The notes beneath the pieces are model-generated. The model saw only the letters and a list, made by a program, of their open reading frames with translations. It was not told the DNA's origin and did not search any database. A stretch of DNA of 64,000 nucleotides from an uncultured Candidatus Saccharibacteria bacterium. Lineage in GTDB: Bacteria > Patescibacteriota > Doudnabacteria > UBA920. Positions 3,587-20,903 of the stretch are shown one piece after another. How positions within the stretch are numbered: the first letter of the stretch is position 1; each line of letters opens with the position of its first letter. Location: assembly GCA_964416765.1 (NCBI GenBank), contig CAYQEU010000001.1:475168-539167 (forward strand), in the 5' to 3' direction. The position numbers and the translations under genes were made by a program.

Positions 3587-3714
3587 CATATGTCCAATTA
3601 TTTGATTATTGGGTGAAGAATGTCTATTTCGGCTGACAAAGAAGCATCAATAATTATGTTGATTTTTGCTTATTTTGTTGTTACACTACAACAGCATAAT
3701 GATTCTAGGCCGCT

Positions 3715-4494
3715 ATGGACAAGGCAATTATCCAAAAACTGTTAGATTTTGGGCTCTCTGAGAAAGAGGCCAGAATTTATATTTCCCTTCTAGAGCTCGA
3801 AGTGGCAACGGCTTTTGAAGCGGCCAAGCATGCCGGCATCAACCGAAGTTCCGCTTACGTTGTACTGGAGAGCCTGAAAAAGAAAGGGTTGGTTGCGGTG
3901 TCAGAAGACAAGAAAGTGAGCCGATACGTTGCCTCCGCTCCAGACATATTACTTCAATCCGCCAGCCTAGAAGCCAAGCGCCACCAGGAAATCAAAGCAG
4001 GCATCGAGTCCGTTATACCCGAACTTAAGGCACTCCACAAGGATACAAAGATGAAGCCGGTGGTAAAAGTGTTTGAGGGAAAAAATGGGCTAATTTCGTT
4101 GTTTGAAGATTCCTTGTACGCTAAAGAAAGAGAAATAAGAATTGTTTCTTCATTAGAAAAGATTTTTTCTTTATTGCCTGAATACGTACCAAGCTACATA
4201 CAAAGACGCTGGAAAAAACGGATAAAAATGTTTGGCATTCATCCCAGCAAACCGACTCTTATACAATATGAAAAGATGGAGAAAGAAAGTGAGGATGAAG
4301 CGATCTTTATCCCCGAAGAAAATTATAAAATGCCAGCAGACTTTGCGATTTACGATAACAAAATTGCTTACATGACCGGCGACAACGGGGGCTTCGGTGT
4401 AATTATTGAGAGCACTGATATGGCAAATGCCATGAAAAGTATTTTCGACCTAGCTCACAAAGAAGCAAAGAGAATAGCAGCAAAGAACAAATAA
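3715..4494 (+). CDS. TrmB-family transcriptional regulator
   Basis: N-terminal HTH resembling TrmB (LDFGLSEKEARIYISLLELE...INRSSAYVVLESLKKKGLV); convergent with histidine kinase, zero spacer. Confidence 0.6.
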   Translation: MDKAIIQKLLDFGLSEKEARIYISLLELEVATAFEAAKHAGINRSSAYVVLESLKKKGLVAVSEDKKVSRYVASAPDILLQSASLEAKRHQEIKAGIESVIPELKALHKDTKMKPVVKVFEGKNGLISLFEDSLYAKEREIRIVSSLEKIFSLLPEYVPSYIQRRWKKRIKMFGIHPSKPTLIQYEKMEKESEDEAIFIPEENYKMPADFAIYDNKIAYMTGDNGGFGVIIESTDMANAMKSIFDLAHKEAKRIAAKNK

Positions 4495-6156
4495 TTACTT
4501 ATGTTCGGCTTCCGCTAAATCCACTACAGCTGTTTCCTCCAAGTCGCTGTTAAGGGGCAACGAGAAAATAAAGGAAGATCCCTTACCTTCTCCTTCACTT
4601 TCCACCCATATCTTTCCGTGATTTTGTTCGATAATTACTTTAGCTACGTATAGCCCAAGCCCTAAACCGGTAGCGGCAGTGGCTGCGTCTTTTCCTCGTG
4701 TATATTTGGAAAACAGAGTCGGTGCAATTTTAGGGTCCACTCCCCTACCTGTGTCTTTAACTTTCATGATTAAATCTGTAGGAGTTTTCTCTATACTCAT
4801 GGTTACTGAGCCTTGTTTGGTGTACTTTATTGCATTGTCGACCATGTTATTTATCACTTGTCTGACTTTTTCCTTGTCCATCATTACTGCGGGCAATGGT
4901 TCCGTAGGGACATTGTATACAAGTTCTATTTTCCTCATTTTAGCCTGAGGAAGTAACTGATCATAGGTTATTCTAGCTAATTCGGCCAGATCGGCTTTTT
5001 CAAAGAAGAATTCCATCTTACCCCTTTCGATGCGTGAGGCATTCAACAGGTCATCAATCAAGGAAATCTGGGAGTTATTTGTAGACTGCACCCTTTCAAG
5101 AGCAGACTTTACCTCTTCATTAAGATCCCCAAAATCCCCGGATAGCACGGCTCCAATGTACCACTTAATTGTAGCGGGGGGCGTGCGTAACTGGTGACTA
5201 GCAATAGAGATAAACTCTGCGCGTGCTTTATCCAGCGCTTCTAGCTTGACATTAGCTTCTTTCAACTGCTCCGTTAGAATTTGGAGTTGCTCTCTCTGTT
5301 TTACTTCATTAATTACGCTCCGTATAAGGAGTATTCCTACACCCAGTACGAGAACAAAAACACTTGATCTAAATATTACTATAGTTAGAGTATTAGAAAC
5401 AATCACTTCAATAAAGGTAGCTATCCCAAGAACAAAGACCAATATCTCCGTGGAAAGTATTTTTACATTTAGGAGTTTGCGACGAATTATGGCATAGCTC
5501 GCAGAAACTATGAATGGAAAGATAAACACCCCTCCCATTGGAACAAAACGTGGATTATTAAGAAAGGCAGGAAAAATAAAATTAAACACGACTAAAAGCC
5601 CAAACATTATCAACATTCCTACTAAGAAAGGCTTTAACTGTTTCTTAACTAAGTCATCGGAACGTATTATGCGTACTACTAGTCTGAACAACGAATAAGC
5701 TATTACGCTGAGAACAAATAAACCAAAAATTGCAATACCCGGGCCGTTTTGAACTCTGGATACTCTACCTTGTGTAAATTCAAGAACCCTGACAAAGACG
5801 TATGGCGTAAGAGTGAATAACGAAATAGCTCCGGTAGCAACAACCAACCATCTATCTTTAGCTCTTCTTGACCTTTCTTCGTTCGGTACCACGTACAAAA
5901 GGTAAAACAATGACGTTACCAACCAACAAGCTAAAAAGATTTCAAACCTTAGTAACCAAATGACTAACGACTGAGATTGGAATTGGTAACTTAGATAATT
6001 AACGACCGTCCAACTTATTGCTACTAAACAAAAATAGAAGAAATAACGGTTAGTTATACTTTTTGGGTTATTATAAAAGACCGCGTAACCTAGTATAAGG
6101 GTAGCTGCTACGCTGATACCAACCGACAACAGATCCAAATTGGTTAGAAAACCCAT
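4495..6156 (-). CDS. Sensor histidine kinase with ~6-TM N-terminal sensor region
   Basis: H-box FISIASHQLRTP, N-box DNAIKYT, G1 DTGRGVD, G2 GLGLGLYVAKVIIEQNHGKIWVESEGEGKGSSF; hydrophobic N-terminal half. Confidence 0.85.
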   Translation of the reverse strand: MGFLTNLDLLSVGISVAATLILGYAVFYNNPKSITNRYFFYFCLVAISWTVVNYLSYQFQSQSLVIWLLRFEIFLACWLVTSLFYLLYVVPNEERSRRAKDRWLVVATGAISLFTLTPYVFVRVLEFTQGRVSRVQNGPGIAIFGLFVLSVIAYSLFRLVVRIIRSDDLVKKQLKPFLVGMLIMFGLLVVFNFIFPAFLNNPRFVPMGGVFIFPFIVSASYAIIRRKLLNVKILSTEILVFVLGIATFIEVIVSNTLTIVIFRSSVFVLVLGVGILLIRSVINEVKQREQLQILTEQLKEANVKLEALDKARAEFISIASHQLRTPPATIKWYIGAVLSGDFGDLNEEVKSALERVQSTNNSQISLIDDLLNASRIERGKMEFFFEKADLAELARITYDQLLPQAKMRKIELVYNVPTEPLPAVMMDKEKVRQVINNMVDNAIKYTKQGSVTMSIEKTPTDLIMKVKDTGRGVDPKIAPTLFSKYTRGKDAATAATGLGLGLYVAKVIIEQNHGKIWVESEGEGKGSSFIFSLPLNSDLEETAVVDLAEAEHK

Positions 6157-6164
6157 TTGTTATA

Positions 6165-7229
6165 TTATGAGTATTTTATTTCTGGCTTCAATCGGGATGA
6201 CATCCCGCTTGGTGGGGTACTATATCCAATTCTAAATAACATAGCTACGCATTGTTGATCGTCCAACTTAGCTACATCTTGAATGATGCCATACGCATCA
6301 CTTATTATTTTAGCATGTTCTTCCGAAAGTGTTTGGTACTCCCCTGCCTTAATGCGCTGCGCTAAATAAACGATTCCTGTTACAGGATGCATACTTATTC
6401 CTAATTGCTCAGCATTAAGCCATATTCTTTGACTAATTTTGCCTGCTTGGAAAAACATCTTGTCATCATTTGGGACTACGACAAGACCGATGGCTGATCC
6501 ATTTGAATAAAGTTTAGAGTTATCCTTTGCTATAAAACGGGAAAGTTTTAAGGTTTGATTTAAAATGCGAGCTAGGGGCCAAACTTGTAGAATTTTAAAG
6601 AATATTAATTTTTGTAAGGGCAACTCCATCGTTTTCAAGTATAGACCTGTTTTTAGACTTCTCTCGGACGATGTAGTCCATCTGATATCCGCGTAAAATA
6701 GATCATGCAACTGTCTATTTTCCAACATAACTACTTCATTTTTTGACACCGCTTCACCAAGTAGTTGTTTTTGCTTTGGATCCTCAATTAAAATGAATTT
6801 TACATCTGGAGAGCCATTCCCTTCATGTAACAAGGAGTTTTTGTGTTCATCCTTGAGAGGAATATCTGCATAGAATTTCCTATTAGTCTGTCTAGACCTT
6901 ATAGAATTGACTAAGGGATTGGTGGTTGGGGCTGCAGGCATTAACTCAACTCGAAAGGTGTGAGAAGAATCCTCAGAATCGGGCCAAACATTTACATTGA
7001 CGGAATAGCCTAAGGTTTCTGCAACCAAGGAAATATTAGTTAAAAGAGCTCCGTGTGCTACTAATGTACCCCGTTGTCTATAATTAAATAGTACGTTATC
7101 CTTTTCCGGTAAGCTGTATACATCTATCACATTTTCGCGAACAACAAAATGCCACGGTTGAGAATTGTCCCCTGACGGTGCAAAGACGGCTTCCTCCAAA
7201 ATTTCCGTAATTTTCTTGGCGATTTCCAT
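6165..7229 (-). CDS. Nitroreductase-family oxidoreductase, apparently two nitroreductase-like domains (SagB/McbC-like architecture)
   Basis: N-terminal APSGDNSQPWHFVV nitroreductase signature; 354 aa, twice the usual domain length; 9-nt gap to HK gene. Confidence 0.55.
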   Translation of the reverse strand: MEIAKKITEILEEAVFAPSGDNSQPWHFVVRENVIDVYSLPEKDNVLFNYRQRGTLVAHGALLTNISLVAETLGYSVNVNVWPDSEDSSHTFRVELMPAAPTTNPLVNSIRSRQTNRKFYADIPLKDEHKNSLLHEGNGSPDVKFILIEDPKQKQLLGEAVSKNEVVMLENRQLHDLFYADIRWTTSSERSLKTGLYLKTMELPLQKLIFFKILQVWPLARILNQTLKLSRFIAKDNSKLYSNGSAIGLVVVPNDDKMFFQAGKISQRIWLNAEQLGISMHPVTGIVYLAQRIKAGEYQTLSEEHAKIISDAYGIIQDVAKLDDQQCVAMLFRIGYSTPPSGMSSRLKPEIKYS

Positions 7230-7236
7230 AACTTAC

Positions 7237-8352
7237 TTAAAGTAAATTCATCTTACCTAAAATATCATTCCTTTCTTGGTCCCGGTCTGACTTCGTGTTA
7301 GGTTCAAAGATATCCTCAAGACTCACATTATACTTACCTCCCTTAATGTTCTTCCCCTCAGCGAAGGCACGAAGCAGATAGGCTGTAACTACTCCGCTAA
7401 ATGAAGCGGCACTTCCTAGCTGAGGCCAGGAATACAGTGTCTTCCCCACTTCCATAAGTGAAGACAGCATTCTAGGAACTATATATTCGGGTCCTGCAAC
7501 TTTAGTTGCCAGCCGGGGTAGTTCTGTAGGCGGAAAGTTCATGAATTGTTCCATTCCAAAATCACCCAACGCACCGTTAAATAGCTGTAATTCTCGATCT
7601 AAATCATATCTCTCCACGTCCACAATTACACTATCTCCGTTATCAGTTGCCATAATTACAGGGGTTCCTGTCTCTCTTGCAACTTCTCTCAACCGAATTT
7701 TCATGGGTAAGTTATCAACACCCTCAACCAATATATTCAAGCCACTCAGGAAATCAACAATATTATTTTCATCTATACCTTCTTCGTAGAGATCAATTTC
7801 TGCATAAGGATTAATTTCTGCGATGATTCTGGCAGCCACCAGGGCTTTGTTCGTGCCTAGAACTGAGGCTCCGTATCTTAACCTATTCAAATTAGAAACA
7901 GATACTTCATCAGGATCGGCTAACTTAACCTGCTTTGCTCCTCCCATTATAGCAGTGGTTAGCGCGCCATGACTTCCTACGCTTAAACCTGCGAAACCCA
8001 CTCGGTAGTTGTAGTATTTCTCTTGTTCAGAGGAAGTAATTAGATTTTTATTTCTCGCCGTTCGCAATTCTAAATATTCCTTCTCAGGCAAATAGTGTAT
8101 CAAGCAATTAGACCATTCAAAATAAAACCACTCCCCGCACTCTTCGTAAGACTTCCCTTTCGTCTCAACCTTTAGAAACTCGTTTAGCTCAGTTTCGTAG
8201 TCGGTTAAAAAACGAAATTTTGGATTCCTTATAAAAAATAATTCTTTTAGTTGTTCCTCATAGCCATCGACTAACTTGACGTTTCGCTCTTCAATAAACT
8301 CATTCAATCCGCCGTCTGTGAAACTCTTTTTTTCTGCTGAAAATTTTATCAT
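7237..8352 (-). CDS. ThiF/MoeB/E1-like adenylyltransferase-family protein with ~115-aa N-terminal extension
   Basis: Rossmann GxGxxG YRVGFAGLSVGSHGALTTAIMGGAKQVKLADPDEVSVSNLNRL typical of E1-like ThiF family; 8-nt gap to nitroreductase. Confidence 0.7.
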   Translation of the reverse strand: MIKFSAEKKSFTDGGLNEFIEERNVKLVDGYEEQLKELFFIRNPKFRFLTDYETELNEFLKVETKGKSYEECGEWFYFEWSNCLIHYLPEKEYLELRTARNKNLITSSEQEKYYNYRVGFAGLSVGSHGALTTAIMGGAKQVKLADPDEVSVSNLNRLRYGASVLGTNKALVAARIIAEINPYAEIDLYEEGIDENNIVDFLSGLNILVEGVDNLPMKIRLREVARETGTPVIMATDNGDSVIVDVERYDLDRELQLFNGALGDFGMEQFMNFPPTELPRLATKVAGPEYIVPRMLSSLMEVGKTLYSWPQLGSAASFSGVVTAYLLRAFAEGKNIKGGKYNVSLEDIFEPNTKSDRDQERNDILGKMNLL

Positions 8353-8355
8353 AGT

Positions 8356-9852
8356 TTATGCCTTATTTAACCATTGTTGTTTAATACCACTCTTAAAATG
8401 AGTGTCGTGGTTGTAAGTCCAAAAAACAATATAAGGAGCAGTTCTTTTAATACCAAGCATTTTTGTTAGTTCTTTGAATTCGGAATTATGCTGAAGCAAT
8501 GTCGATATAACACTTTTTTGCGTGATTGCTCGGAGTTTTTTACTCACCGTAACTCTTGGCTTCATCTCAACATTAACTTCTAAAAATTGATTGCTCTTTT
8601 TGTCATAGACCGTTCTCATAGAAAATTTACCCGTTAGGTAAGGATGAAGGGTTCTACTCTCGAGAGCAATTTTAATAGTCTGCGGATAGACTTGTAAACC
8701 ATATAATGTCGTTGAAAAATCGCTTCGTTCATACACGTAGACGAAAGGTAGCGCATTCAAGCTGACTTTAGCTCCTTTTGCTTCTGATATGAGGTCGATC
8801 CCGTTCCTGCTAAATGCCGCAATTATTTCAGACAATCTATATGTACCTCCGCGGTCTCCAATATCGTAACGCAAAAAAGGTGTAGCACTATCGGCAGATA
8901 TAAGTACCTTACCTTCTTCCTCGTCGAATGCTATGAAGCTCGGGTTGTATTGGGCTAAGGTTGGAATTTTGTTATCCCTAAACAACTCTTGATAAACTTC
9001 TGCATGCTGAAGTGCTAGTCTTCTAATGAATATGCTCGCTGGGGTTTCAAATGCCATGGCTCCTAGCTCAGCACTTCCATATAGATTAAGAGTATCATTA
9101 TAGATATTTTTAATCTTTCCTCTTTTTACCACATAATCTCTGAAGTTTTCGGTAAAACTTTCTGCCGCAAACAGAAGCCTGAGGTTGAATTTAGAAAAAT
9201 CAATTTTCTCCAGCTTTGCTTCGTCCAATAGATCCTTTATGAAAGGAGGGTATCCTGCCAATATAACGTTATCAAAATTGACAGCAAGATTCCTCAGCGC
9301 GTGAAAGATCTCTTTTTTGTTTATTCCTGGAGTGATAATTGTCACAGGATGTCCTCTCAACGCTGTTATACGAAATGCCTGATATGTAATCAAACCCCCA
9401 ATCCAAACTCCCATACCAAAACAGTCTACTAGTAAAGTAGATCCTTTAGGCCCATTTTTTAGGAAGAATTCGGCTATAAGCGAATAATGTTCGTCCACAT
9501 CCTCTGTTCTAGGAAAGTATGTAGGTGACCCCGTAGATCCAGAAGTAGCCGTCATCACTTGACCCTTTTCCCGAAGCAAATTCTTCCAAGTTGTATCCGT
9601 TAAAGGGAACTTTTTAAAATAATTAGTTTTTGAAATAGGAGGTATGGCCGAAATGTCCGAATATTTTTTTATATTTCGAATCTTGATTCTAGCTTTAGAA
9701 AGATACCTCTTATAAGCAGTAACACCCTTGGTCATACTGTGAAATAACCGAAACGTAAGGTGTCTTTGTTTAGTCCCCCAAAAATTTTCAGCGCGTGCAA
9801 GCGTAGATGAGGTAATAGCGCGTGTTTCCTGAAGAGACTTAAAACTATTCAT
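8356..9852 (-). CDS. Adenylate-forming enzyme of the phenylacetate-CoA ligase / F390-synthetase (PaaK-like) family
   Basis: AMP-binding P-loop-like TSGSTGSPTYFP; overall length and YGSAE motif consistent with PaaK/CapK family. Confidence 0.6.
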   Translation of the reverse strand: MNSFKSLQETRAITSSTLARAENFWGTKQRHLTFRLFHSMTKGVTAYKRYLSKARIKIRNIKKYSDISAIPPISKTNYFKKFPLTDTTWKNLLREKGQVMTATSGSTGSPTYFPRTEDVDEHYSLIAEFFLKNGPKGSTLLVDCFGMGVWIGGLITYQAFRITALRGHPVTIITPGINKKEIFHALRNLAVNFDNVILAGYPPFIKDLLDEAKLEKIDFSKFNLRLLFAAESFTENFRDYVVKRGKIKNIYNDTLNLYGSAELGAMAFETPASIFIRRLALQHAEVYQELFRDNKIPTLAQYNPSFIAFDEEEGKVLISADSATPFLRYDIGDRGGTYRLSEIIAAFSRNGIDLISEAKGAKVSLNALPFVYVYERSDFSTTLYGLQVYPQTIKIALESRTLHPYLTGKFSMRTVYDKKSNQFLEVNVEMKPRVTVSKKLRAITQKSVISTLLQHNSEFKELTKMLGIKRTAPYIVFWTYNHDTHFKSGIKQQWLNKA

Positions 9853-10901
9853 TACTGTTTATTAAATATTTTTTCTGCCATAGCATCTGCCACGGCGTCA
9901 GGATTCAATTTTTGTTTCGATGATTCATCCAAAACTTTCTTGAGCGTCTTCTTCAGATTATTGATATTTTTTAATACCCTTGTTTTATCATATCCACCTG
10001 GTAAAAGTTCATCCGCTACATTGATCAACCCTCCCGCATTTGCAATATAATCAGGAATGTGAAGAATGCCTTTCTGGAACAACTTATCCTTTATACTTTC
10101 ATCCGCTAATTGATTATTAGCGGTGCCGCAAACAATTGGAGCTCTGAGGCTTTTTAATCTCTCATCATCAATATCATTTCCCAACGCACAGGGACAATAT
10201 ACGTCTACTTCAGTTGTCTGCATTTCGCTCATTGTCACCGGCTGAATGTTAGGATGCAATTTTGATAACAAGTCTATTTTGGTCGAATCTATATCGGTAG
10301 CAAAAACTACTCCACCGGCCTTAGCTAATAACCAAGCTAATTCGCTTCCCGTTTTCCCCACTCCTTTTATGGCGAATTTTTTTCCCGTAATATCGGAATT
10401 GTTATACAAGTGTTCTAAAGCTACTTGAATACAAAGGAATACGCTCATGGCGGCGTATTTGGATGGATCCCCTGCCAAACCAGTTTTACCAATGAAGTAC
10501 GGACTGTACTGAAGCATGTATTGCACCTGTGGCTCGCTAAGGCCAACATCTTCGCCAGTATAAAATCTCCCTTTGAGAGAGCTTACTTTTTCGGCATAGG
10601 ATTTTAGAATTGCGTTGGTATCAGAGTGTGCCAAATCAGCAATGATTACACCTTTTCCTCCTCCAAAGGGTAGTCCTGCGATTGCACATTTATAAGTCAT
10701 AGCACGCGAAAGCCTTAAAACATCTTTTAATGCTTGTTCTTTGTCTTGGTAATTAAATATGCGGGTACCGCCCAATGCTGGTCCCAAATTTGTGTTGTGA
10801 ACGGCAATATAACCGGAAATTCCCGAGTTGTCTTCCGACAAGTCAACGACCTGTTCGTGATCTTGGTATTCCGGTGTTTTGTTAATATCTATGTAATCCA
10901 C
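9852..10901 (-). CDS. Glu/Leu/Phe/Val dehydrogenase family (leucine/phenylalanine dehydrogenase-like)
   Basis: GGTRIFNY...AIAGLPFGGGKGVI catalytic Lys motif; C-terminal NAD Rossmann GVGKTGSELA; 349 aa. Confidence 0.8.
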   Translation of the reverse strand: MDYIDINKTPEYQDHEQVVDLSEDNSGISGYIAVHNTNLGPALGGTRIFNYQDKEQALKDVLRLSRAMTYKCAIAGLPFGGGKGVIIADLAHSDTNAILKSYAEKVSSLKGRFYTGEDVGLSEPQVQYMLQYSPYFIGKTGLAGDPSKYAAMSVFLCIQVALEHLYNNSDITGKKFAIKGVGKTGSELAWLLAKAGGVVFATDIDSTKIDLLSKLHPNIQPVTMSEMQTTEVDVYCPCALGNDIDDERLKSLRAPIVCGTANNQLADESIKDKLFQKGILHIPDYIANAGGLINVADELLPGGYDKTRVLKNINNLKKTLKKVLDESSKQKLNPDAVADAMAEKIFNKQ

Positions 10902-11017
10902 TGTTGCGATATAACCCCTCTAAATCTCTATAATTATAGCTAATTTAGGCATATATATCAACATTTAGCACTAAGTCAGGAGTTGACTTTTAAGTAAAAA
11001 AACTATGTAATATACCC

Positions 11018-11467
11018 ATGCCCTGTATTTTTTGCCAAATTGTCTCAGGGGAAGCGCCATCCCATAAAGTCTGGGAAAGTGAATCCCATATGGCTTTCCT
11101 ATCAATTTTCCCCAATACCGAAGGGGTAACCGTGGTGGTACCCAAAGAACACTACCCCAGCTATGTCTTTGATATGCCAGAATTAGCCTTCATGAGCCTT
11201 ATTGCCGCCGCCAAAGAAGTTGGCCTTTTACTGGACTCCAAACTGGATGACGTAGGCCGTACGGCCATGGTTGCCGAAGGCTTCGGTGTGGACCACGCCC
11301 ACATCAAACTTTTCCCCATGCATGGCACCAAGGGCGATTGGGTCCCCCGCCATTCTGACATCAATACCTATTACGAAACCTACCCAGGCTATATCTCCAC
11401 CCACGATTCCGACAAGGCGGACGATTCTGCCCTGGCTGACCTGGCCAAGAAGATAAAAAATGGGTAG
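11018..11467 (+). CDS. HIT-family (histidine triad) hydrolase
   Basis: HIT motif VDHAHIKLFP; CxxC at N-terminus; 149 aa. Confidence 0.75.
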   Translation: MPCIFCQIVSGEAPSHKVWESESHMAFLSIFPNTEGVTVVVPKEHYPSYVFDMPELAFMSLIAAAKEVGLLLDSKLDDVGRTAMVAEGFGVDHAHIKLFPMHGTKGDWVPRHSDINTYYETYPGYISTHDSDKADDSALADLAKKIKNG

Positions 11468-11624
11468 CAACGGCGTTTCGTTACTACCCAATTAATCATG
11501 GACTGGAATAATTTAAAAGAAACTGAAATGAACGGTCATACGGCGAATGGACAGCCAAAATACTGGCATCTCTTTGACATTATAGCGCGCAAACAATAGC
11601 CTATTCGCCAAAACAGTACTTTTC

Positions 11625-11633
11625 TGGTATAAT
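11625..11633 (+). promoter_or_regulatory. Extended -10 element TGGTATAAT upstream of response regulator gene
   Basis: tttcTGGTATAATaaac ~37 nt upstream of ATG at 11671. Confidence 0.4.
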
Positions 11634-11670
11634 AAACATAAGGTACTTAACCTTTTCTGAAACAAAAACT

Positions 11671-12150
11671 ATGGCAGACATAGAAAAACCGAAAAAGATC
11701 CTCATGATTGAGGACGACGTGGCCATGAGGGAAATTGTCATCCACAAGCTCATGACCCATGGTTTTGAAGTTAAAGAAGCTGAAGACGGAAAGCAGGGCA
11801 TTGATTTAGCTATTGCTGAAAAGCCTGACCTAATCTTGCTTGATTTGATGCTCCCGGAAGTTGACGGGTTCCAGGTTCTGGAAACTGTCCGCTCAAACCC
11901 GGACCAGAAAGTAGCCAACACCCCTATTATCATTTTGAGCAACCTCTGGAGCAACAAGGATATCCTTCGCACCAAGGCACTTAAAGTACAGGCTTACATG
12001 GTTAAGGCTTACTTTACCACCGAAGAAATCTTAACTAAAATCAACGAGATACTGGCTGCCGGACCCGACGCCCCGGCAGCAATTCCAGTCGAAGGAGCGC
12101 CATCCTCCGCCGCTCCCGCCTCACCGCCACCCGGAACACCGGCGCAATAA
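11671..12150 (+). CDS. Stand-alone receiver-domain response regulator (CheY-like) with Pro/Ala-rich C-terminal tail
   Basis: ILMIEDD...DLILLDLMLPEVDG...IIILSN receiver motifs (phospho-accepting Asp in LLDLML); no output domain. Confidence 0.8.
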   Translation: MADIEKPKKILMIEDDVAMREIVIHKLMTHGFEVKEAEDGKQGIDLAIAEKPDLILLDLMLPEVDGFQVLETVRSNPDQKVANTPIIILSNLWSNKDILRTKALKVQAYMVKAYFTTEEILTKINEILAAGPDAPAAIPVEGAPSSAAPASPPPGTPAQ

Positions 12151-12161
12151 TAACCAAAACT

Positions 12162-12196
12162 AAAACCCGCCTCTCTAGATGGCGGGCTTTTTGTTT
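12162..12196. terminator. Bidirectional rho-independent terminator between response regulator and HU gene
   Basis: cccgcc-9nt loop-ggcggg followed by cttttt; A-run upstream for opposite strand. Confidence 0.6.
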
Positions 12197-12212
12197 CTAA
12201 CGACTAATCTGT

Positions 12213-12503
12213 TTAGAGGATGGAATCCTTAGCAGCTTTTGCTACGCGAAACTTAACTACAGTCTTGGCAGGAATCTGGATAGATTCGCCGGTTGCCGGG
12301 TTGCGGCCCATGCGAGCATCGCGGTGCTTCTTCTGAAGCTTACCAAGGCCAGGAATGGTGAATTCGCCGCTCTTCTTGGTTTCGCTGTAAGCCAACGCAA
12401 CCATGGCATCCATCATTTCGCTAACTTCCTTGCGAGTCTTGCCGAGCTTGTCGGCCAAGTATTGTAAGGTCTCTGACTTAGTCATTGTTTGTACCTTTTG
12501 CAT
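12213..12503 (-). CDS. hup: HU-family nucleoid-associated DNA-binding protein
   Basis: ARMGRNPATGESIQIPAKTVVKFR arm motif typical of HU/IHF; 96 aa. Confidence 0.85.
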   Translation of the reverse strand: MQKVQTMTKSETLQYLADKLGKTRKEVSEMMDAMVALAYSETKKSGEFTIPGLGKLQKKHRDARMGRNPATGESIQIPAKTVVKFRVAKAAKDSIL

Positions 12504-12686
12504 CCGTGCCTGTAAATTTTCGAGGCCGGATTTAATTATTTTATTCCCTCCAAAAGATCCATAAAAATCATATCAGAAAGCCTAGTAAAATCAAGCATTT
12601 TTCAAAACTTGGCTTAAACAAGGCAAAAAACTCATTTAAAAAACCCCAATAAAATCAATGGGTTTAGGTACTAACAAAACCAAATT

Positions 12687-13664
12687 ATGCTAGAATGGTT
12701 TAAAGACATGCCAACACACGCTGATACTTCGAAAAAGTACAATTTCAAAAAGAGGGAAATTTTGGATTTATTAGCAAAAGAGTTCAAAATCACTAGTCCA
12801 CAATTAAGCCTTATTAAGTCAGGGCTGATTAATACTTCCATTAAGGTATCCTCTGCTAAAGAAGGTAAGTATTTGTTGAGGGTATACAAAGATCAACCGG
12901 AAGCAAAAATTCTGCGCGAACTGCTATTTATGGAGAAAATGAGCCGGAATCAAATCCCTGTACCCAAAATCTTTTTATCGAGAACCAAGTCTAAGATTAT
13001 TAAGTTTATGGATGATAGCGGAATAAAAAGAAAAGCTGTATTATTTGAGTTTAAAAGAGGTAAGCATATTTCTGCTTCACAACTAAATATGATTCAGGAG
13101 GTTGCTAATATTCATGCTCGCATGCACAAGGCAACCGGCAAGCTTACTCCTGCTTCTAAAGGAGTAAGAAACGCTATATTATGGCTTAAAGATGAACACG
13201 ATTCCGCTCAATACAAACTAAAATCTCTACCCGCCCAGAAGCAAAAACTCGATGTTATCTTTAGTAGCGTTATTAAAAAATTTCAAAAGTTACCTGTCCT
13301 CCCTCAAGGTTTGGCACACCTTGATTTTGATAGTTCCAATATTTTAGTGACCGGTCAAAAGGTCACTGGTATTATTGATTTTGACGACCTAGACCAAGTC
13401 CCTTTTATTATGGATTTGGGGTATTCCATATGGTGGTGGGTTTTTAATAATAACATCGTTAACTTGGAAAAAATTATTAATAACTATACTTCAGCCTACC
13501 AGAATGTCCGGCCGCTATCGTCAAAAGAACGTGAATCCCTCCGGTTGTTTATATCATTACGCAATATTACTCTAGCTTACTTATTGTTCGTTAACCTCCC
13601 CAAACGTCCAATCGTGGCTAAACTAAATAAAGCGATCTCTCTGAACAACCAGATTAACCGCTAA
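12687..13664 (+). CDS. Phosphotransferase-family kinase (APH/choline-kinase/homoserine-kinase-II-like); alternative start at 12708 possible
   Basis: Catalytic loop HLDFDSSNILV (HxDxxxxN) and IIDFDD (DFD metal-binding); Lys-rich N-lobe. Confidence 0.55.
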   Translation: MLEWFKDMPTHADTSKKYNFKKREILDLLAKEFKITSPQLSLIKSGLINTSIKVSSAKEGKYLLRVYKDQPEAKILRELLFMEKMSRNQIPVPKIFLSRTKSKIIKFMDDSGIKRKAVLFEFKRGKHISASQLNMIQEVANIHARMHKATGKLTPASKGVRNAILWLKDEHDSAQYKLKSLPAQKQKLDVIFSSVIKKFQKLPVLPQGLAHLDFDSSNILVTGQKVTGIIDFDDLDQVPFIMDLGYSIWWWVFNNNIVNLEKIINNYTSAYQNVRPLSSKERESLRLFISLRNITLAYLLFVNLPKRPIVAKLNKAISLNNQINR

Positions 13665-13668
13665 TCCT

Positions 13669-14799
13669 ATGTATATCCCCTTCCATGAACCTCACCTATC
13701 GAAAAAGACGGAATCAATAGTGAAAAAAGTTTTAGAGAGTAAGTGGCTTACTACGGGAAATTACGCCAAATTGTTTGAAAAGGAAATAGCTAGTTTCCTT
13801 CGGGCCGAGCACGTAACCGCGGTCTCATCGTGTACTGCCGCTCTGCATGTGGCTTACCTTGCCGTCGGGCTGGAACCAGGAGACGAGGTAATTGTTCCAA
13901 GCTTCACCTTTTGCTCTACTATAAACATGATTGTTAATACTGGTGCTAAACCAGTATTTTGTGATATCGATGAGCAATCCTTATGCTTAGACCCTAAGGA
14001 CGTGGCAAGAAAAATTTCCCCCAAGACCAAAGTAGTATTAGCCGTACATTTCGGCGGGACCCCGGCTGACCTAGATGCCATAAAAAAAGTTACCCAAGAC
14101 AAAAATATAGTTATAATTGAAGACGCAGCCCATGCCTTCACTACAAAATATAAAGGCAAGTATATTGGCACCCACGGTAACATCTCCTGTTTCAGCTTTT
14201 ATGCCACCAAAGTTTTAACTACTGGGGAAGGTGGTCTGCTTACTGTTCCTACATCATCAATGCTTACCACAGCTAAAACTATAGCCAATCATGGAGTCCC
14301 CGAGCAAAAGCACCACCGTTATTCTAAGTTAGGCAATCCTGGATACGAGGTGATTTATCCAGGATATAAATACAACCTAAGCGACCTCCACGCTGCAGTT
14401 GGCTTATCACAAATTGATTCAATTGAAGCTGACTTGAAAAAGCGCTCTGCCATAGCAAGCACTTATCAGCGCCTTTTAGGAAAGAATAGTAATCTAGTGC
14501 TCCCCCTTAACCCTGCCCAAAGAGGTAGCCAGCATTCTTGGCACTTGTTTACTACGCAAGTTGTTAAATCCAAGCACAGGGATCCCCTGCTGAGGCACTT
14601 AAAGCAAAAAGGTATAGGTACTAGTGTTCATTTTATCCCCAACCACGAGCAGCCATATTATAAAAAAATGTTTCCAAAAGTAAGACTACCAGTTACCGAA
14701 AGGGTCGGATCTACCATTTTGTCTTTGCCCATATATCCAGGATTAAAACCAGATGCCTTAAAATACATTGCTAAGGCCATAAACGAATTCTTATGGTAA
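13669..14799 (+). CDS. DegT/DnrJ/EryC1/StrS-family PLP-dependent sugar aminotransferase
   Basis: SCTAALHVA..., GDEVIVPSFTF, SFYATKVLTTGEGG (PLP Lys) motifs. Confidence 0.8.
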   Translation: MYIPFHEPHLSKKTESIVKKVLESKWLTTGNYAKLFEKEIASFLRAEHVTAVSSCTAALHVAYLAVGLEPGDEVIVPSFTFCSTINMIVNTGAKPVFCDIDEQSLCLDPKDVARKISPKTKVVLAVHFGGTPADLDAIKKVTQDKNIVIIEDAAHAFTTKYKGKYIGTHGNISCFSFYATKVLTTGEGGLLTVPTSSMLTTAKTIANHGVPEQKHHRYSKLGNPGYEVIYPGYKYNLSDLHAAVGLSQIDSIEADLKKRSAIASTYQRLLGKNSNLVLPLNPAQRGSQHSWHLFTTQVVKSKHRDPLLRHLKQKGIGTSVHFIPNHEQPYYKKMFPKVRLPVTERVGSTILSLPIYPGLKPDALKYIAKAINEFLW

Positions 14800-15719
14800 A
14801 TTTGCGAGGCAAAAACATTTTAATTACCGGTTCTAGTGGCTTCGTTGGATCGAACTTAGCCAAGGCCCTTTCAAGGCGAAGCGATATAAAAGTTACCTTA
14901 CTTGATACCAAGGCGCCCCGATATCCTGTTCCCGTAGGATGGCATTTCATAAAAGGATCCTTTGTCCAGCCTGATCTTCGCCGCAAAGCGCTGGCTGGAC
15001 AGGACCTTATTTTCCATCTGGGGGCCGTCGTAGGAGTAGAAACGGCTTTAAAGCAAAAAGAATTGCTGCGAAAAGTAAACTTAGATGCAACCATTGAGTT
15101 TATCGATGACGCTGTTCAGGCAGGGTGCAAAAAAATAGTATTTACTTCATCCTCAGAAATTTACGGCAACAGCAAAAAGATTCCATTCTTGGAATCGCAG
15201 CGAGCCAAACCGATATCAGATTACGGGAAGTATAAAATTTTAATTGAAAAGCATTTGCGGTCGCTGGTCAAGAAAGGCAAAATCAAAGCTACAGTAGTTC
15301 GGTTTTTTAATGTTTATGGGCCCGGGCAAAGGGATGCTTTCGTAATATCTCAATTTATTAAAAGAGCAGCGACTGGAAAACCTTTAATTATATTTGGCAG
15401 TGGCAACCAGACCCGAAGTTTCACCTACATTGATGACGCCATAACTGGATTACTTAAGGCCATGCGTTACGACCAAACTAATTTCGAAATCTTTAATATT
15501 GGCAGCGACCAAGAATTTTCCTTGTCCAAACTCGCTAATCTTATCGCTTCTTCCGAGTATCCGAAATTGAAAATTTTGTACCAGGATCCGACCATAAAGA
15601 GATATGACATAGCTAAACGAGTTCCCTCTTTGGAAAAGTCTAAGAAACTTTTAAAATTCCGGGCCAAGGTTTCTCTTCCCGCAGGACTGAGGTTTATGAA
15701 AGATGCAGAAACAGTTTGA
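14793..15719 (+). CDS. NAD-dependent epimerase/dehydratase (SDR family)
   Basis: ILITGSSGFVGSNL Rossmann; YGNSK (YxxxK) catalytic motif. Confidence 0.75.
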   Translation: MVNLRGKNILITGSSGFVGSNLAKALSRRSDIKVTLLDTKAPRYPVPVGWHFIKGSFVQPDLRRKALAGQDLIFHLGAVVGVETALKQKELLRKVNLDATIEFIDDAVQAGCKKIVFTSSSEIYGNSKKIPFLESQRAKPISDYGKYKILIEKHLRSLVKKGKIKATVVRFFNVYGPGQRDAFVISQFIKRAATGKPLIIFGSGNQTRSFTYIDDAITGLLKAMRYDQTNFEIFNIGSDQEFSLSKLANLIASSEYPKLKILYQDPTIKRYDIAKRVPSLEKSKKLLKFRAKVSLPAGLRFMKDAETV

Positions 15720-16965
15720 TCCAAAAGCATACAGCCCAGCTCGCCCTGGAAGGATATCCCAAATATATCCTTCCCCTTATTTAATATTTGATACCGTCGC
15801 GATTTTTTTCAGCGCAGTGTTACTTTTATTTCCGGGAATGAGAGACAAACTTCATAAAAAAATTAGATTGCTTCTGCTCCAAAAATTTCCAGCTAACGAA
15901 GCAGTTCTTTATGATTCGGGTAGGTCTGCTCTGGTCGCCGCTCTGGTTGAAAGCGGAGTAAAAGAAGGTGACGAAGTCATAATAAATAACAATTCGTGCC
16001 CGGCTGTGGCTGACAGCATAATCAGTACGAATGCAACTCCCGTTCTTGCCAAATGTAATGAGCAAGGTTGTATAGACATGGATTCACTAGACCAGATAAT
16101 CACCGCTAGAACCAAAGCAATAATTTTAACCCACTCTTATGGATTGCTCGATCAAGAACCGGTGCTCGAAGGTTCTGATATTGAAATAATCAATGATCTG
16201 GCGCAATGTGATCTGACAGACCCAGCTGTTATCGCCACAATCACTAAATACAAATTATCTATCCTAAGCTTTGGTCCGGAAAAATATTTTTCTGGATTGG
16301 GTGGAGGAGTCCTCCTAAACAATTATACGAGCCGGCCCACCCTGCCGAGTGGTGTTTCTAGGGTCGCACAACTCAAACAATCATGGGCATTTTGCGTTCA
16401 AAGATATCGCTACGTGTTAACTTTTTTTCTTTATTCTCTTAAGATTCCAGGGGTATTATCTCTGACATCCTCAATTCGCCTTTCTTTGCAATTCAAATCG
16501 AAAAAATCCCCTCACGACATATCCAAACCTGAAGCAATTGAGCCAAAATCCTATAATTCCTTTTTACTACTTTCGTTGTGGTATCGCCTTCACAGGATTA
16601 ATAGGGATATGAACGCCGAAAGAAACTACGTTTTGCTTAAAAGACTTTTGCCTGATATTCTAATTAGCCCCATTCTTTTGAATCAAACCCTTCCCCTCCA
16701 AGCGGTCATTAAAGTTCCTCCTCACGGAAGACAAAGATTAGCTGAGCAGCTTTCTAAACAAGGATTTCAAACGGTATGGAACTATTTTCCCCTTTCCTAT
16801 TACACCGCTTATTCAAATTTTCCGAGCCAAGTTAGCAATTTTTGGGAAAATGTTTTAACTATCCCTTTTCGTTCACTTTCTAGTTCTCAAATTCATAAAT
16901 TGGCAAAAATTATTAATGATGAAGTTATCCCAAATTCAGCAAATTCCCAATCCCTTTCTAACTAA
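15703..16965 (+). CDS. Divergent DegT-like aminotransferase paralog with ~180-aa C-terminal extension
   Basis: LYDSGRSAL, ILTHSYGLL, SFGPEKYFSGLGGG resemble DegT motifs; extra C-terminal region of unknown function. Confidence 0.45.
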   Translation: MQKQFDPKAYSPARPGRISQIYPSPYLIFDTVAIFFSAVLLLFPGMRDKLHKKIRLLLLQKFPANEAVLYDSGRSALVAALVESGVKEGDEVIINNNSCPAVADSIISTNATPVLAKCNEQGCIDMDSLDQIITARTKAIILTHSYGLLDQEPVLEGSDIEIINDLAQCDLTDPAVIATITKYKLSILSFGPEKYFSGLGGGVLLNNYTSRPTLPSGVSRVAQLKQSWAFCVQRYRYVLTFFLYSLKIPGVLSLTSSIRLSLQFKSKKSPHDISKPEAIEPKSYNSFLLLSLWYRLHRINRDMNAERNYVLLKRLLPDILISPILLNQTLPLQAVIKVPPHGRQRLAEQLSKQGFQTVWNYFPLSYYTAYSNFPSQVSNFWENVLTIPFRSLSSSQIHKLAKIINDEVIPNSANSQSLSN

Positions 16966-17752
16966 TCGATTTTTCGATCAGCCAAATTTCCAAAATGTTT
17001 TAAGGGAAGTGTTCTCTTTAAAAACTTCTGCTTTTAATTTTACCTTGGAAAATACAGATGGGTATATCAATATTCAAGAAGATAAAACAGGAATCTACTC
17101 AAATTTTATGGGCTATGGGGGTCCCATTATGGAGCGCCAAACCGGCAATATATCCTCTGTGCTTAGCGCTCTGCAACAGGAATATGGAAAAAAGTTTAGG
17201 CGTATCAAGCTTTACCCGTTCAATTCACAACTGCCTCATAACGGGTTCAAACCGGAGCAAACTTGGATTTTAGATTTAACAAAGTTTAATCTGGAAAACC
17301 TCAGTAAATCCGTAAGGTATGAAGTCCGAAAAGCAAAACAAAATGATGTATTAATCCGTCCTCTGGAGAAAGAAGAACTAGAATCGTTCTATAATATCTA
17401 CAAACAAACAGCTGCTCGGGTAGGCAGCAGTTATTTAACCCCATATCTGCTATTTCAAAAGCTACATGACATACCTGCATGCTTATTTCTTGGTGCATTC
17501 CACAAAAAAGAGTTGATTGCTACCAGCGTGTACCTACAATCTGACCAATATGTTTACTTCTGGTGGAATTCCTCAACAGATAAAGGACGATTACTTTCTG
17601 CTAATTACAGTCTTACCTTCGAAGCGATCAATTTATTTCAGAACAAGGGAATTTTGCACCTGGATATGGCTAGTTCCCATAATGAGAAAATACTCCGTTC
17701 AAAAGAAAACTGGGGTGCTACCCCAGCGAATTTTCTTAACCTATCTATTTAA
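16916..17752 (+). CDS. FemAB-like / GNAT-fold (Acetyltransf_6-like) acyl- or aminoacyl-transferase
   Basis: Size and pattern (YEVRKAKQNDV...YLQSDQYVYFWWNSS) reminiscent of FemAB/BioF2-like N-acyltransferases in sugar clusters; weak. Confidence 0.35.
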   Translation: MMKLSQIQQIPNPFLTNRFFDQPNFQNVLREVFSLKTSAFNFTLENTDGYINIQEDKTGIYSNFMGYGGPIMERQTGNISSVLSALQQEYGKKFRRIKLYPFNSQLPHNGFKPEQTWILDLTKFNLENLSKSVRYEVRKAKQNDVLIRPLEKEELESFYNIYKQTAARVGSSYLTPYLLFQKLHDIPACLFLGAFHKKELIATSVYLQSDQYVYFWWNSSTDKGRLLSANYSLTFEAINLFQNKGILHLDMASSHNEKILRSKENWGATPANFLNLSI

Positions 17753-18749
17753 CCATTGCTTCAGCAGGGTTAAATTCATAAGCGCGACGGGCATACTCAG
17801 GAAAATATTTGTGCACCAAGCCCTGCAATAATTTCATGTTATCAGGCTCGGGATTGGTCACTACTATAAAACCCGGGGATGATTCGTTGATATTGGTCCA
17901 GAGTTTGGCTCCGGCGCTGCTGGCAAAGTAAGCGGCGGCTGCGACATCCACTTTCTGCAAATCGAAACCAACAAACACATTGCCATTTTTGCTGACGGTG
18001 TCAGCGATCCCATACGCTGCGCTGCTATACCGGACATCTTTCAGCACTTGGTGGGAACCCTTTAGCTCTGCCCAAAATTTGGCCATCGCCTCATTCGTTT
18101 CTTCTGCTTCAGGGATGTCTGAAAAGTCGCTGTAGTACACTGATTCTTCAAACCTCCTCGGATTCGCTATGACTAGCCCTAGCTCGTCTGCTGAGACGTG
18201 AAAAGCTTTCTGGTCGCCTGCATAAAATAACTCTTGTTTTTCTGGCACATAGATCATTCCGTAATCCAACTTATTGCCTTTTTCATGGGCCAAGGAAATG
18301 CTGTAATCATTATATCCAGCCACATACGCCCTGGTGCCGTCTAGAGAATCCAAATAAAATCTAGATTCAGCCATTGGGTTACCGACTTTACCCTCTTCGC
18401 CTATGAAATAAGTCAGCTTTTCATCATTTACTTTTTTTAGCTCATCTAAAATCCGGGTTTGTGACTCCAGATCGGCCGCAGTCACGATATCGGTGCGGGA
18501 GTTTTCGAGCGGCTTTGTGTCTGCAACTACTGAATCTTTCTTTTCTACCAACAAAGCTCCGCCTTCAATAATCGCATCAAAAGCGTTGCGCAGGGATTTT
18601 TTCTTATCCGGGTCTTCTACAGTTGATTCTATCAAAATATAAAATCTATGAGCGATAGAATCTATTCTTTCAACATGGTCGCGCACTTTCTTCTCCGAGC
18701 TGGCCGAGAATTCAGACAGGGAGGATGAGCGTTCAAAATTATTTTGCAT
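17745..18749 (-). CDS. Inositol monophosphatase family protein (IMPase/CysQ-like) with N-terminal extension
   Basis: FYLDSLDGTRAYV (DPxDGT metal-binding) and WTNINES... motifs of IMPase superfamily. Confidence 0.6.
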   Translation of the reverse strand: MQNNFERSSSLSEFSASSEKKVRDHVERIDSIAHRFYILIESTVEDPDKKKSLRNAFDAIIEGGALLVEKKDSVVADTKPLENSRTDIVTAADLESQTRILDELKKVNDEKLTYFIGEEGKVGNPMAESRFYLDSLDGTRAYVAGYNDYSISLAHEKGNKLDYGMIYVPEKQELFYAGDQKAFHVSADELGLVIANPRRFEESVYYSDFSDIPEAEETNEAMAKFWAELKGSHQVLKDVRYSSAAYGIADTVSKNGNVFVGFDLQKVDVAAAAYFASSAGAKLWTNINESSPGFIVVTNPEPDNMKLLQGLVHKYFPEYARRAYEFNPAEAMVK

Positions 18750-18751
18750 TC

Positions 18752-19642: not shown

Positions 19643-19644
19643 AA

Positions 19645-20328: not shown

Positions 20329-20348
20329 AAGAGTATTATAGTTTTTCA

Positions 20349-20390
20349 GGACAAAAAAATACAGGGCCAACCAAAGTGCGGTCAGCCCTG
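20349..20390 (-). terminator. Putative rho-independent terminator after RNHCP gene
   Basis: Minus strand: cagggc-loop-gccctg followed by tattttttt immediately after TAG stop. Confidence 0.4.
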
Positions 20391-20849
20391 CTAGTCTCGG
20401 TGCGGAACGCCGCCAACCCCGTAATAGGATAGCAGTACAGCGTCAGCAAGCGTCTGGTCGTTGCTGGCCAGTCCGAGTAATGCGTCCAGGGAATCGTCAG
20501 CCGCAATTCGATTACTGCTTTCCTTGTGACAGGAAACGCAGGAATGAATAATGCCGATTTCGCCGTCGTTCCTTATTTCAACCTCAAGAGGTTGCATGTT
20601 TCCACCGCAGATTGCGCTTCCAAGCCGCGAACCTACAGAGCTATCAACGTGCTTGCTCCACAAACACGTTGGACAGTGATTGCGATGACTTGAACCTGGC
20701 GCTAAGCCGGGTATCATCGCACGACAGTGGCTGCAACGGAAATCATTCCTTTTGTTCTTGGATTTTTCCAGCTTGCGAGCCGTTTTCAGGTCAAGCGAAT
20801 CATCATCTGCAAATCTCGCTTGATGCTTAAACGTTTTTGCCATGGACAA
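20391..20849 (-). CDS. RNHCP-domain zinc-ribbon protein
   Basis: Literal RNHCP motif (SHRNHCPTCLWSKH) plus CSHC and CVSCH Cys/His pairs. Confidence 0.65.
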   Translation of the reverse strand: MSMAKTFKHQARFADDDSLDLKTARKLEKSKNKRNDFRCSHCRAMIPGLAPGSSHRNHCPTCLWSKHVDSSVGSRLGSAICGGNMQPLEVEIRNDGEIGIIHSCVSCHKESSNRIAADDSLDALLGLASNDQTLADAVLLSYYGVGGVPHRD

Positions 20850-20872
20850 AGCCCTCCTTAACTTTGTGCATA

Positions 20873-20881: not shown

Positions 20882-20903
20882 CAAAAACGTTATTTTTGCA
20901 AGT

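Follow-up and report, generated by a model that had tools for sequence, protein, structure and literature searches.

A stretch of 64,000 nt from an uncultured Candidatus Saccharibacteria bacterium (GTDB lineage Patescibacteriota, Doudnabacteria, UBA920; contig CAYQEU010000001.1, positions 475,168 to 539,167 of the forward strand), called the window in the following, contains five tightly packed open reading frames (ORFs) on its minus strand, running from position 10901 down to 4495. We propose that this conserved five-gene operon encodes an oxazolone-synthetase-type pathway, in which an adenylate-forming ligase replaces the acyl-CoA-dependent N-acylation, and we put the probability of this reading at roughly 55%. 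Two of the genes specify what is, to judge from the sequences, a two-gene (split) oxazolone-synthetase-type enzyme, i.e. a ThiF-like protein and a nitroreductase-fold flavoprotein, and the operon is a conserved accessory cassette of Patescibacteria. Homology and gene linkage were observed directly, and from them we infer the substrates, the product, and the link to the kinase encoded by the last gene.

The first gene encodes an ELFV-family amino-acid dehydrogenase of 349 aa (9852-10901; Pfam ELFV_dehydrog_N/ELFV_dehydrog). It is followed by the gene for a Pfam-negative PaaK-like adenylate-forming enzyme of 498 aa (8356-9852; assigned by TIGR02155, PDB profile, and fold), the gene for the ThiF-like protein of 371 aa (7237-8352; Pfam ThiF, NF005901), and the gene for a double-fold nitroreductase (NTR) of 354 aa (6165-7229; NF005901, PRK14851, NF047509), which is a flavin-dependent oxidase (FDO). 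The last gene encodes a sensor histidine kinase of 553 aa with an N-terminal 7TM domain (4495-6156; Pfam HisKA_7TM, HisKA, HATPase_c). The junctions are, in this order, an overlap of 1 nt and gaps of 3, 7 and 8 nt, the kinase ORF beginning 8 nt past the FDO stop. A first-pass annotation, made from the sequence alone, had noticed a ThiF protein next to a 354-aa nitroreductase carrying the motif APSGDNSQPW. Both ORFs were confirmed, and the motif comprises NTR residues 17-26; the spacing given there as 8 nt is 7 nt, and the N-terminal extension of the ThiF protein, given as 115 aa, is about 100 aa, since the Pfam ThiF domain begins at residue 103. No second copy of the cassette genes was found elsewhere in the window.

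The ThiF protein and the NTR match consecutive parts of one family model, NF005901 (Rv1355c family). The ThiF protein reached an E-value of 8e-86 and 288.9 bits (residues 12-363 at model positions 23-353), and the NTR an E-value of 7e-49 and 166.7 bits (model positions 375-713). The next ThiF-type model for the ThiF protein scored 82 bits, about 200 lower; the score against PRK08223, which we guess is perhaps a better model for TyzB (318 aa, see below), was 82 bits. The best-scoring model for the FDO was PRK14851 (E 2e-56). This is the model of a 679-aa protein to which the ThiF protein aligns at 18-170 and the NTR at 328-661, and, judged from these positions, it also appears to describe a ThiF-NTR fusion. 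The FDO matched the Acg family model NF047509 with an E-value of 3e-35, and its closest PDB structure is Acg (2YMV).

Alignments with natural fusion proteins gave the same picture. In tblastn searches, annotated Rv1355c-family proteins (Rhodococcus, Mycolicibacterium plasmids) were 33% identical over 92-96% of the ThiF protein, with the extension included. The concatenated ThiF and NTR sequences aligned collinearly with three fused Rv1355c-family proteins, and 86 columns of the alignment are invariant. Among them are GLSVG, LADxD, SNLNR, K169, D213 and WPQL in the ThiF half, and APSxxNxQPW together with several Arg and Trp in the FDO half. In addition, ThiF-FDO fusions were found in the same clade among the representatives of the NTR family at 50% identity (P0243, P0340, P0345). 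Their identities to the two proteins of the window are 52% and 44%, and one of them occurs in a window-like context (ELFV dehydrogenase, 499-aa ligase, fusion, HisKA_7TM kinase). Because both proteins match halves of NF005901, align collinearly with the fused proteins, show kinship to Acg, and are fused in members of the same clade, we assign the pair to the oxazolone-synthetase-type enzymes as a split form.

Rv1355c ("MoeY") is TrzS, a fusion of a ThiF cyclase and an FDO that was shown in a 2025 study to convert N-acyl-tryptophan to an oxazolone. Its ThiF domain cyclises N-acyl-Trp with ATP (the D217A variant is dead), and the FMN domain then desaturates with O2; the closest solved FDO to TrzS was also reported to be Acg (PMC12856293). 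The same chemistry is performed by TyzB/TyzC, the split form of M. tuberculosis (PMC10404671), and by OxzB, the founding fused enzyme (bioRxiv 10.1101/2020.06.11.147165). The chemistry suggested in the first-pass annotation, i.e. ATP-dependent heterocyclisation and FMN-dependent dehydrogenation, is therefore likely by homology to TrzS/Rv1355c, with the FDO presumably acting as a C-alpha/C-beta desaturase.

The ThiF family forms a clade of stand-alone proteins, about 375 aa in length, that extends across the Patescibacteria. It has 1831 homologues at E<=1e-10; the best 120 of them are 50-64% identical to the window protein, except for its own cluster and one at 89%. In a pattern search of one genome per GTDB species, 176 carriers of a relative were found; the gene-order counts given here and below are from 80 species-level loci, restricted in each case to the loci with sufficient flank. 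A PaaK-like gene lies directly 5' of the ThiF gene in 61 of 68 loci (median gap 6 nt), and a double NTR directly 3' of it in 72 of 77 loci (median gap 3 nt). The ThiF-NTR pairing far exceeds chance and, together with the fusions, bears out the earlier suggestion that the two proteins form a functional pair. In 56 of 63 loci the 7TM kinase gene follows further 3' with the same orientation. The gene order PaaK-like, ThiF, FDO, 7TM kinase is conserved, and all four genes are present in 44 of 56 loci. The median intergenic gaps within the cassette are 1-6 nt, and the flanking genes are variable. In 10 loci, a gene for a protein of about 318 aa with an S-adenosylmethionine (SAM)-methyltransferase-like motif is situated between the FDO and kinase genes, and in three representatives (P0249, P0316, P0258) the FDO forms a fusion with a methyltransferase-like protein, either of the two coming first.

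The residues expected for adenylation are retained in the ThiF protein. GLSVG, D146, N154, R157, K169 and D213, as well as WPQL, are invariant across 27 homologues and the fused actinobacterial proteins. We take these residues to be the counterparts of the catalytic residues of MoeB/ThiF, an equation that is based on motif spacing. At the sequence level the adenylation site is intact, and D213 probably corresponds to D217 of TrzS.

It is very improbable that the ThiF protein is a canonical sulfur-carrier or ubiquitin-like activating enzyme (ThiF/MoeB/MoeZ) that happens to lie beside an unrelated NAD(P)H nitroreductase. The protein does contain the Pfam ThiF domain, and homologues are publicly annotated as "molybdopterin/thiamine biosynthesis adenylyltransferase", but the scores against the canonical equivalogs were only 38-74 bits, compared with cutoffs of 152-647, so that this assignment fails as well. 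The protein has two Cys only, neither of which is conserved; it contains no CxxC zinc site, no catalytic or Zn-binding Cys, and also no rhodanese domain. The window yielded no ThiS/MoaD-like or GG-ending small ORF. The NTR belongs with the Acg/FDO proteins, with only 19.6 bits for the NfsA/NfsB type, and the fusions and the strict adjacency show that the two proteins act together. The first-pass annotation had treated the pair as unlike ordinary MoeB/ThiF proteins and NAD(P)H nitroreductases, and this view is supported.

The same annotation had compared the pair with the C and B proteins of thiazole/oxazole-modified microcin (TOMM) systems, here taken together with the linear azol(in)e-containing peptides (LAPs). 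The resemblance is real at a formal level. In both cases a protein of the E1 superfamily is found beside a nitroreductase-fold FMN enzyme (McbC/SagB in TOMM systems), and the logic is shared, i.e. a five-membered ring is made and then dehydrogenated, which is likely also for the window pair. However, a non-canonical TOMM/LAP system, with an E1-like docking protein, a SagB/McbC dehydrogenase, and a PaaK-like enzyme replacing the YcaO protein, is highly improbable, being contradicted by the profile as well as the context tests. The analogy failed in every comparison made. Neither of the two proteins matched any TOMM model: the NTR did not match TIGR03605 (SagB-type dehydrogenase) even at E<=10, and neither ocin_ThiF_like nor related models were among the 20 NCBIfam matches of the ThiF protein. 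As had been noticed before, no YcaO protein is visible: the Pfam domain is absent from all ORFs at 139-24775 and from nearly all ORFs of >=350 aa beyond (with the exception of the 356-aa ORF 55837-56907), and from the annotated recurrent neighbour families of the 80 loci (clusters 15 and 17-21 were left unannotated). Likewise, the apparent lack of a precursor peptide was confirmed for the intergenic space of the operon. A scan of 3.4-11.7 kb for a precursor or a GG-ending carrier returned nothing intergenic within the operon; all Cys/Ser/Thr-rich small ORFs lie within or antisense to coding genes, except for a 21-aa ORF (3670-3735), which is located 5' of trmB and outside the operon.

In TOMM systems the YcaO protein is the ATP-using cyclodehydratase, and the E1-like protein is a docking scaffold for the substrate, a ribosomal peptide; the window cassette has none of these features. 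The E1-like proteins of LAP systems mainly bind the peptide (PMC12596934), whereas the ATP-site residues of the window ThiF protein are invariant. The missing YcaO protein is explained because, in TrzS-type enzymes, the ThiF domain is itself the ATP-dependent cyclodehydratase. A PaaK-like adenylating enzyme is indeed encoded next to the pair, as had been stated, but it is not a substitute for YcaO; it occupies the position that the N-acyltransferases OxzA, TyzA and TrzA have in the known oxazolone clusters.

The structural comparisons of the ThiF protein bear on another explanation, namely that it is a ThiF-like enzyme of the MccB/PaaA/GrcB/IndF type, which modifies a ribosomal peptide, encoded elsewhere, at its C-terminus or a side chain, with the FDO oxidising the peptide. 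The AlphaFold2 (AF2) model of the ThiF protein has a pLDDT of 88, and its Foldseek matches are AclA (9EGB), ThiF, MoeB, PaaA, TcdA and MccB, so that PaaA and MccB are among the structural relatives. Among the ThiF-like enzymes characterised from secondary metabolism, most target peptides and have a recognition domain at the N-terminus (PMC12596934), and the window protein likewise has an N-terminal domain, which is conserved and comprises about 100 aa. However, this domain alone had no match in Pfam or the PDB sequences, including RRE/PqqD, and it is common to TrzS, a small-molecule enzyme, as indicated by the NF005901 match and the alignment with the fused proteins. Furthermore, there is no conserved small ORF in or beside the cassette, the genes of which abut, and a peptide-modifying function is thus improbable. 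By sequence profile, the closest solved relatives are AclA (9EGB/9EGC) and then, among them, TcdA (E 1.5e-14). For AclA of Tenacibaculum discolor, the top structural match, no paper was found in the literature searched. TcdA, the tRNA ct6A dehydratase, closes an oxazolone-type ring via adenylation (PMC12596934); it differs from the window protein in that its substrate is a tRNA and that it has neither the N-terminal extension nor an FDO partner.

For comparison, we aligned the features of the cassette with those of the characterised oxazolone systems. The TrzS/TrzA system (Rv1355c/Rv1356c; N-acyl-tryptazolone; mycobacteria and Rhodococcus; PMC12856293) shares collinear homology over the extension, the ThiF domain and the Acg-like FDO. 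TrzS is fused, whereas the window pair is encoded by two genes 7 nt apart, with fused forms existing in the same clade. TrzA was not found here, and the conserved partners are instead the PaaK-family ligase, a dehydrogenase or aminotransferase, and the 7TM kinase; the hosts are mycolic-acid bacteria in the one case and Patescibacteria in the other. The TyzA/TyzB/TyzC system (Rv2336-Rv2338c; N-acyl-tyrazolone; PMC10404671) and the stieleriacine clusters (NAS-MTase-ThiF-NTR, where NAS is the N-acyl-amino-acid synthase and MTase the methyltransferase; PMC12479983) likewise encode the ThiF protein and the FDO in separate, very closely spaced genes of one operon and may include a methyltransferase; the latter parallels that of the cassette. 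Both the Tyz and the stieleriacine clusters carry an NAS and contain neither a ligase nor a kinase. OxzB of Pseudoalteromonas rubra is a ThiF-nitroreductase didomain protein for the ATP-dependent cyclodehydration and oxidation of N-acyl aromatic amino acids; unlike the window pair it is a fusion, its partner is the acyl-CoA-dependent N-acyltransferase OxzA, and the reported occurrences are confined to proteobacteria (56 UniProt proteins; bioRxiv 10.1101/2020.06.11.147165). According to a 2025 review, OxzB is the sole ThiF-like enzyme with a known small-molecule substrate (PMC12596934). In the literature searched, neither oxazolones nor ThiF-nitroreductase pairs have been described for Patescibacteria. 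The enzyme pair is of a known kind, and the cassette differs from the characterised ones in that no NAS was found, in its PaaK-family ligase, dehydrogenase/aminotransferase alternative, and 7TM kinase, and in its Patescibacteria host; no description of such a cassette was found in the literature searched.

The ligase belongs to a divergent clade of the PaaK family. It scored 47.8 bits against TIGR02155 (PaaK phenylacetate-CoA ligase), far below the cutoff of 646, and had no Pfam match; the profile search of the PDB returned PaaK (2Y4O, E 7e-14). The full length of the AF2 model (pLDDT 86) can be superposed on PaaK1 (2Y27; TMq 0.63, TMt 0.73), the Foldseek top match; NatL2, AjiA1 and ClxA come next, followed by the amide-bond synthetase McbA. 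Because the core motifs of ANL enzymes, i.e. the P-loop, YGxxE, GD, RxD and GK, are invariant in 30 homologues, the ligase is predicted to be competent for adenylation. NatL2, AjiA1 and ClxA are PaaK-family AMP ligases for CoA-free condensations in benzoxazole pathways. They and PaaK have the full-length two-domain PaaK fold and the adenylation motifs in common with the window ligase, which differs from them in an identity of only about 15-17%, an additional length of about 60-70 aa, and its lack of a Pfam match. An ATP-dependent activation of an acid and N-acylation of an amino acid would be compatible with these relationships.

The position 5' of the ligase gene is occupied by one of two unrelated enzymes. 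For 62 loci, we found an ELFV dehydrogenase in 20 and a HisC-like class I/II aminotransferase (PF00155) in 13. The best NCBIfam match of the window dehydrogenase is the Trp dehydrogenase ScyB (294 bits, under the cutoff of 600), and the closest PDB structure is Trp dehydrogenase (5B37, E 2e-71), followed by leucine and phenylalanine dehydrogenases. It thus probably acts on a hydrophobic or aromatic amino acid, converting it to the 2-oxo acid and back. The aminotransferase is not homologous to it but has the same net reaction, and because the two alternate at one position, the interconversion of amino acid and 2-oxo acid appears to be part of the pathway.

All characterised oxazolone clusters have an N-acyl-amino-acid synthase, i.e. 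OxzA, TyzA, TrzA or NasY, and no Pfam label for such a synthase or an acyltransferase was present among the cassette neighbours. Two probes were used in addition. One was a putative TrzA, the product of an unannotated 260-aa gene beside a Rhodococcus Rv1355c-family gene and only tentatively identified as TrzA; the other was taken from a ThiF protein of Kitasatospora, the N-terminus of which resembles GNAT proteins weakly (sub-threshold Pfam matches). Neither had a tblastn or phmmer match in the window or the 80 loci. The Kitasatospora protein is an observation in its own right. It has 616 aa, is annotated as "ThiF family adenylyltransferase", and is encoded on a plasmid of Kitasatospora sp. 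NBC_00070 (L088:5137-8021); its N-terminal 288 aa are weakly similar to GNAT/Acetyltransf_5, so that it is possibly an acyltransferase-cyclase fusion. A KAS III gene follows it, and the annotated stretch contains no FDO.

For the sensor kinase, the mean identity to the window protein is 40% for the 7TM domain and 36% for the catalytic core, and the numbers of columns conserved at >=90% are 25 and 26, respectively. The 7TM domain thus equals the catalytic core in conservation, which indicates that an orthologous sensor domain travels with the cassette. A stand-alone receiver-domain response regulator of 159 aa is encoded on the plus strand of the window (11671-12150; Pfam Response_reg), and orthologues with 62-65% identity adjoin the cassette in related loci. 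Across the loci, a stand-alone receiver was present within 2.5 kb of the cassette in only 10 of 71 loci; the response regulator was therefore rejected as a cassette member and is a possible, weakly associated partner of the kinase.

Taken together, the following pathway would be compatible with the results. The dehydrogenase or aminotransferase, according to its gene linkage, would supply or recycle a pair of an aromatic or hydrophobic amino acid and a 2-oxo acid. The ligase would adenylate a free acid and acylate the amino group of an amino acid, yielding an N-acyl amino acid without acyl-CoA or an NAS. By homology to TrzS, TyzB and OxzB, the ThiF protein would adenylate the carboxylate, and attack by the amide oxygen would give a 5(4H)-oxazolone. 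The FDO, again by homology, would desaturate C-alpha/C-beta, leading to a conjugated oxazolone or an N-acyl-dehydroamino acid, and an optional methylation might follow in some lineages. The 7TM kinase may sense the product or couple the pathway to an envelope cue, which is speculative and suggested by gene linkage. Patescibacteria are understood to have a limited acyl-CoA and fatty-acid metabolism, and an ATP-only ligase route would suit them.

Several observations weigh against the oxazolone pathway in this form. The scores of the two proteins on NF005901 add up to 456 bits, less than the curated cutoff of 476, which neither half can reach alone; this suggests a sister clade rather than a TrzS orthologue, and the substrate could differ. 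For 29 of the 62 loci, neither a dehydrogenase nor an aminotransferase is encoded directly 5' of the ligase. The sensitivity of the acyltransferase search was limited, with two mutually unrelated probes and precomputed Pfam labels. The scarcity of receivers near the cassette would also be compatible with a link of the kinase to the cassette that is regulatory instead of product sensing. Characterised FDOs use O2, whereas many Patescibacteria come from low-oxygen groundwater. Last, a plain CoA-ligase activity of the PaaK-like enzyme would leave the N-acylation without a candidate enzyme.

Some of these points lead to the main rival, in which the same enzyme logic acts on another scaffold. The ligase would then join a 2-oxo or amino acid to a second amino acid, and activation by the ThiF protein would close a different ring, e.g. 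of the diketopiperazine, morpholinedione or pyrazinone type, with the FDO desaturating it like cyclic-dipeptide oxidases. Alternatively, the enzymes would run an amide-donor cycle, in which an N-acyl-dehydroamino acid is hydrolysed to a primary amide and a 2-oxo acid that is recycled by the dehydrogenase or aminotransferase. The conserved dehydrogenase/aminotransferase partner is absent from every characterised oxazolone cluster, the clade scores below the TrzS equivalog cutoff, and the PaaK-family relatives NatL2 and ClxA perform unusual condensations, all of which would fit this explanation. In contrast, every characterised ThiF-FDO pairing yields oxazolones from N-acyl aromatic amino acids, and no data favour another ring. 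We thus regard a different scaffold as unlikely, yet as a possibility to be taken seriously, while the peptide-modifying, TOMM and sulfur-carrier explanations are poorly supported.

If the oxazolone pathway is correct, the cassette could be a signal-and-receptor module. A diffusible oxazolone or dehydro-N-acyl-amino-acid would be made from scavenged amino acids by an ATP-only route that needs neither acyl-CoA nor fatty-acid synthesis, and the 7TM kinase would be its cognate receptor; we consider this extension rather doubtful at present. We know of no autoinducer-like circuit that has been described in Patescibacteria, and the module would be the first widely conserved one in the phylum and would give bacterial oxazolones a physiological role. 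The oxazolone synthetases have been known since 2021, and it has been proposed that they serve in signalling (PMC12856293).

Patescibacteria with the cassette probably make a small heterocyclic molecule, and perhaps they also sense it. At least 176 species-level lineages retain the cassette with its dedicated sensor kinase, despite the tiny genomes of these bacteria. If the ligase replaces the acyl-CoA-dependent synthase, it would represent a second, ATP-only entry to N-acyl-amino-acid and oxazolone chemistry. The cassette also corrects the widespread labels "molybdopterin/thiamine biosynthesis adenylyltransferase" and "phenylacetate-CoA ligase", and it is a clonable target of four or five genes for a small molecule of uncultivated episymbionts.

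Several loci deviate from the common arrangement. In Wolfebacteria RIFOXYD12_FULL_48_21 (L003:6400-12300, identical to L018), the cassette is decayed, with an FDO cut to 186 aa and situated about 2.6 kb from the ThiF gene. It is flanked by three copies of a repeat encoding LLLPPFAVFFGKEPYYLFCGIFFHGWHIALSIGDFCVWCK, with a radical-SAM/SPASM gene upstream and acidic small ORFs downstream. In one locus with a fused ThiF-FDO gene (L092:2222-3310), a dihydroorotate-dehydrogenase-family flavoprotein is encoded directly 5' of the ELFV dehydrogenase. One FDO representative (P0253) has a C-terminal domain of 255 aa to which no identity was assigned. A conserved Pfam-less protein (about 177 aa, five transmembrane segments predicted) is encoded just 5' of the dehydrogenase- or aminotransferase-ligase genes in 10 loci (L009:7600-8106 and nine others). 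Subsets of the loci (L042:15443-16438, L046:15595-16947, L037:5729-6826, and relatives) have DnaK-GrpE-DnaJ genes upstream of the cassette and genes for a Trp/Tyr-type class I aminoacyl-tRNA synthetase, a class II aminoacyl-tRNA synthetase, or an ABC exporter 3' of the kinase. These flanks probably represent lineage synteny; a Trp/Tyr-type synthetase beside a putative aromatic-amino-acid pathway is worth noting.

Within the window, a sigma-70-like promoter candidate (TTGATA-17-TATAAT, 11/12) is located 5' of the first gene of the operon at 10933-10961 on the minus strand. It is the top consensus match within 3.4-12.3 kb, though a consensus match only, and the total of promoter-like sites in the region was no higher than expected from shuffling. 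The operon is flanked by genes for a TrmB-family regulator (3715-4494) and a HIT protein (11018-11467), as it is in another Doudnabacteria locus (L001). TrmB recurs close to the cassette in about 9 of 80 loci. Both genes were rejected as core members and ascribed to lineage-specific synteny; TrmB may be a lineage-specific regulator of the cassette.

The operon is part of a block of about 18 kb (3600-21700) with a GC content of about 40%, the remaining window having 48-52%. The block also encodes the receiver protein, HU, an APH-type kinase, DegT aminotransferases, an epimerase, a FemAB/GNAT-like protein (16916-17752), an inositol-monophosphatase-like protein, and a PIG-L deacetylase. It ends at 21.7 kb, where the core ribosomal and RpoA genes begin, and may be an acquired accessory island. 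Outside this block, four large ORFs have no Pfam match, i.e. 26231-27925 (564 aa), 40473-42152 (559 aa), 44995-46170 (391 aa) and 59000-60730 (576 aa). Their neighbours are genes connected with the cell envelope, encoding a sortase, an S8 peptidase, glycosyltransferases, an O-antigen ligase, and proteins of the rhamnose pathway.

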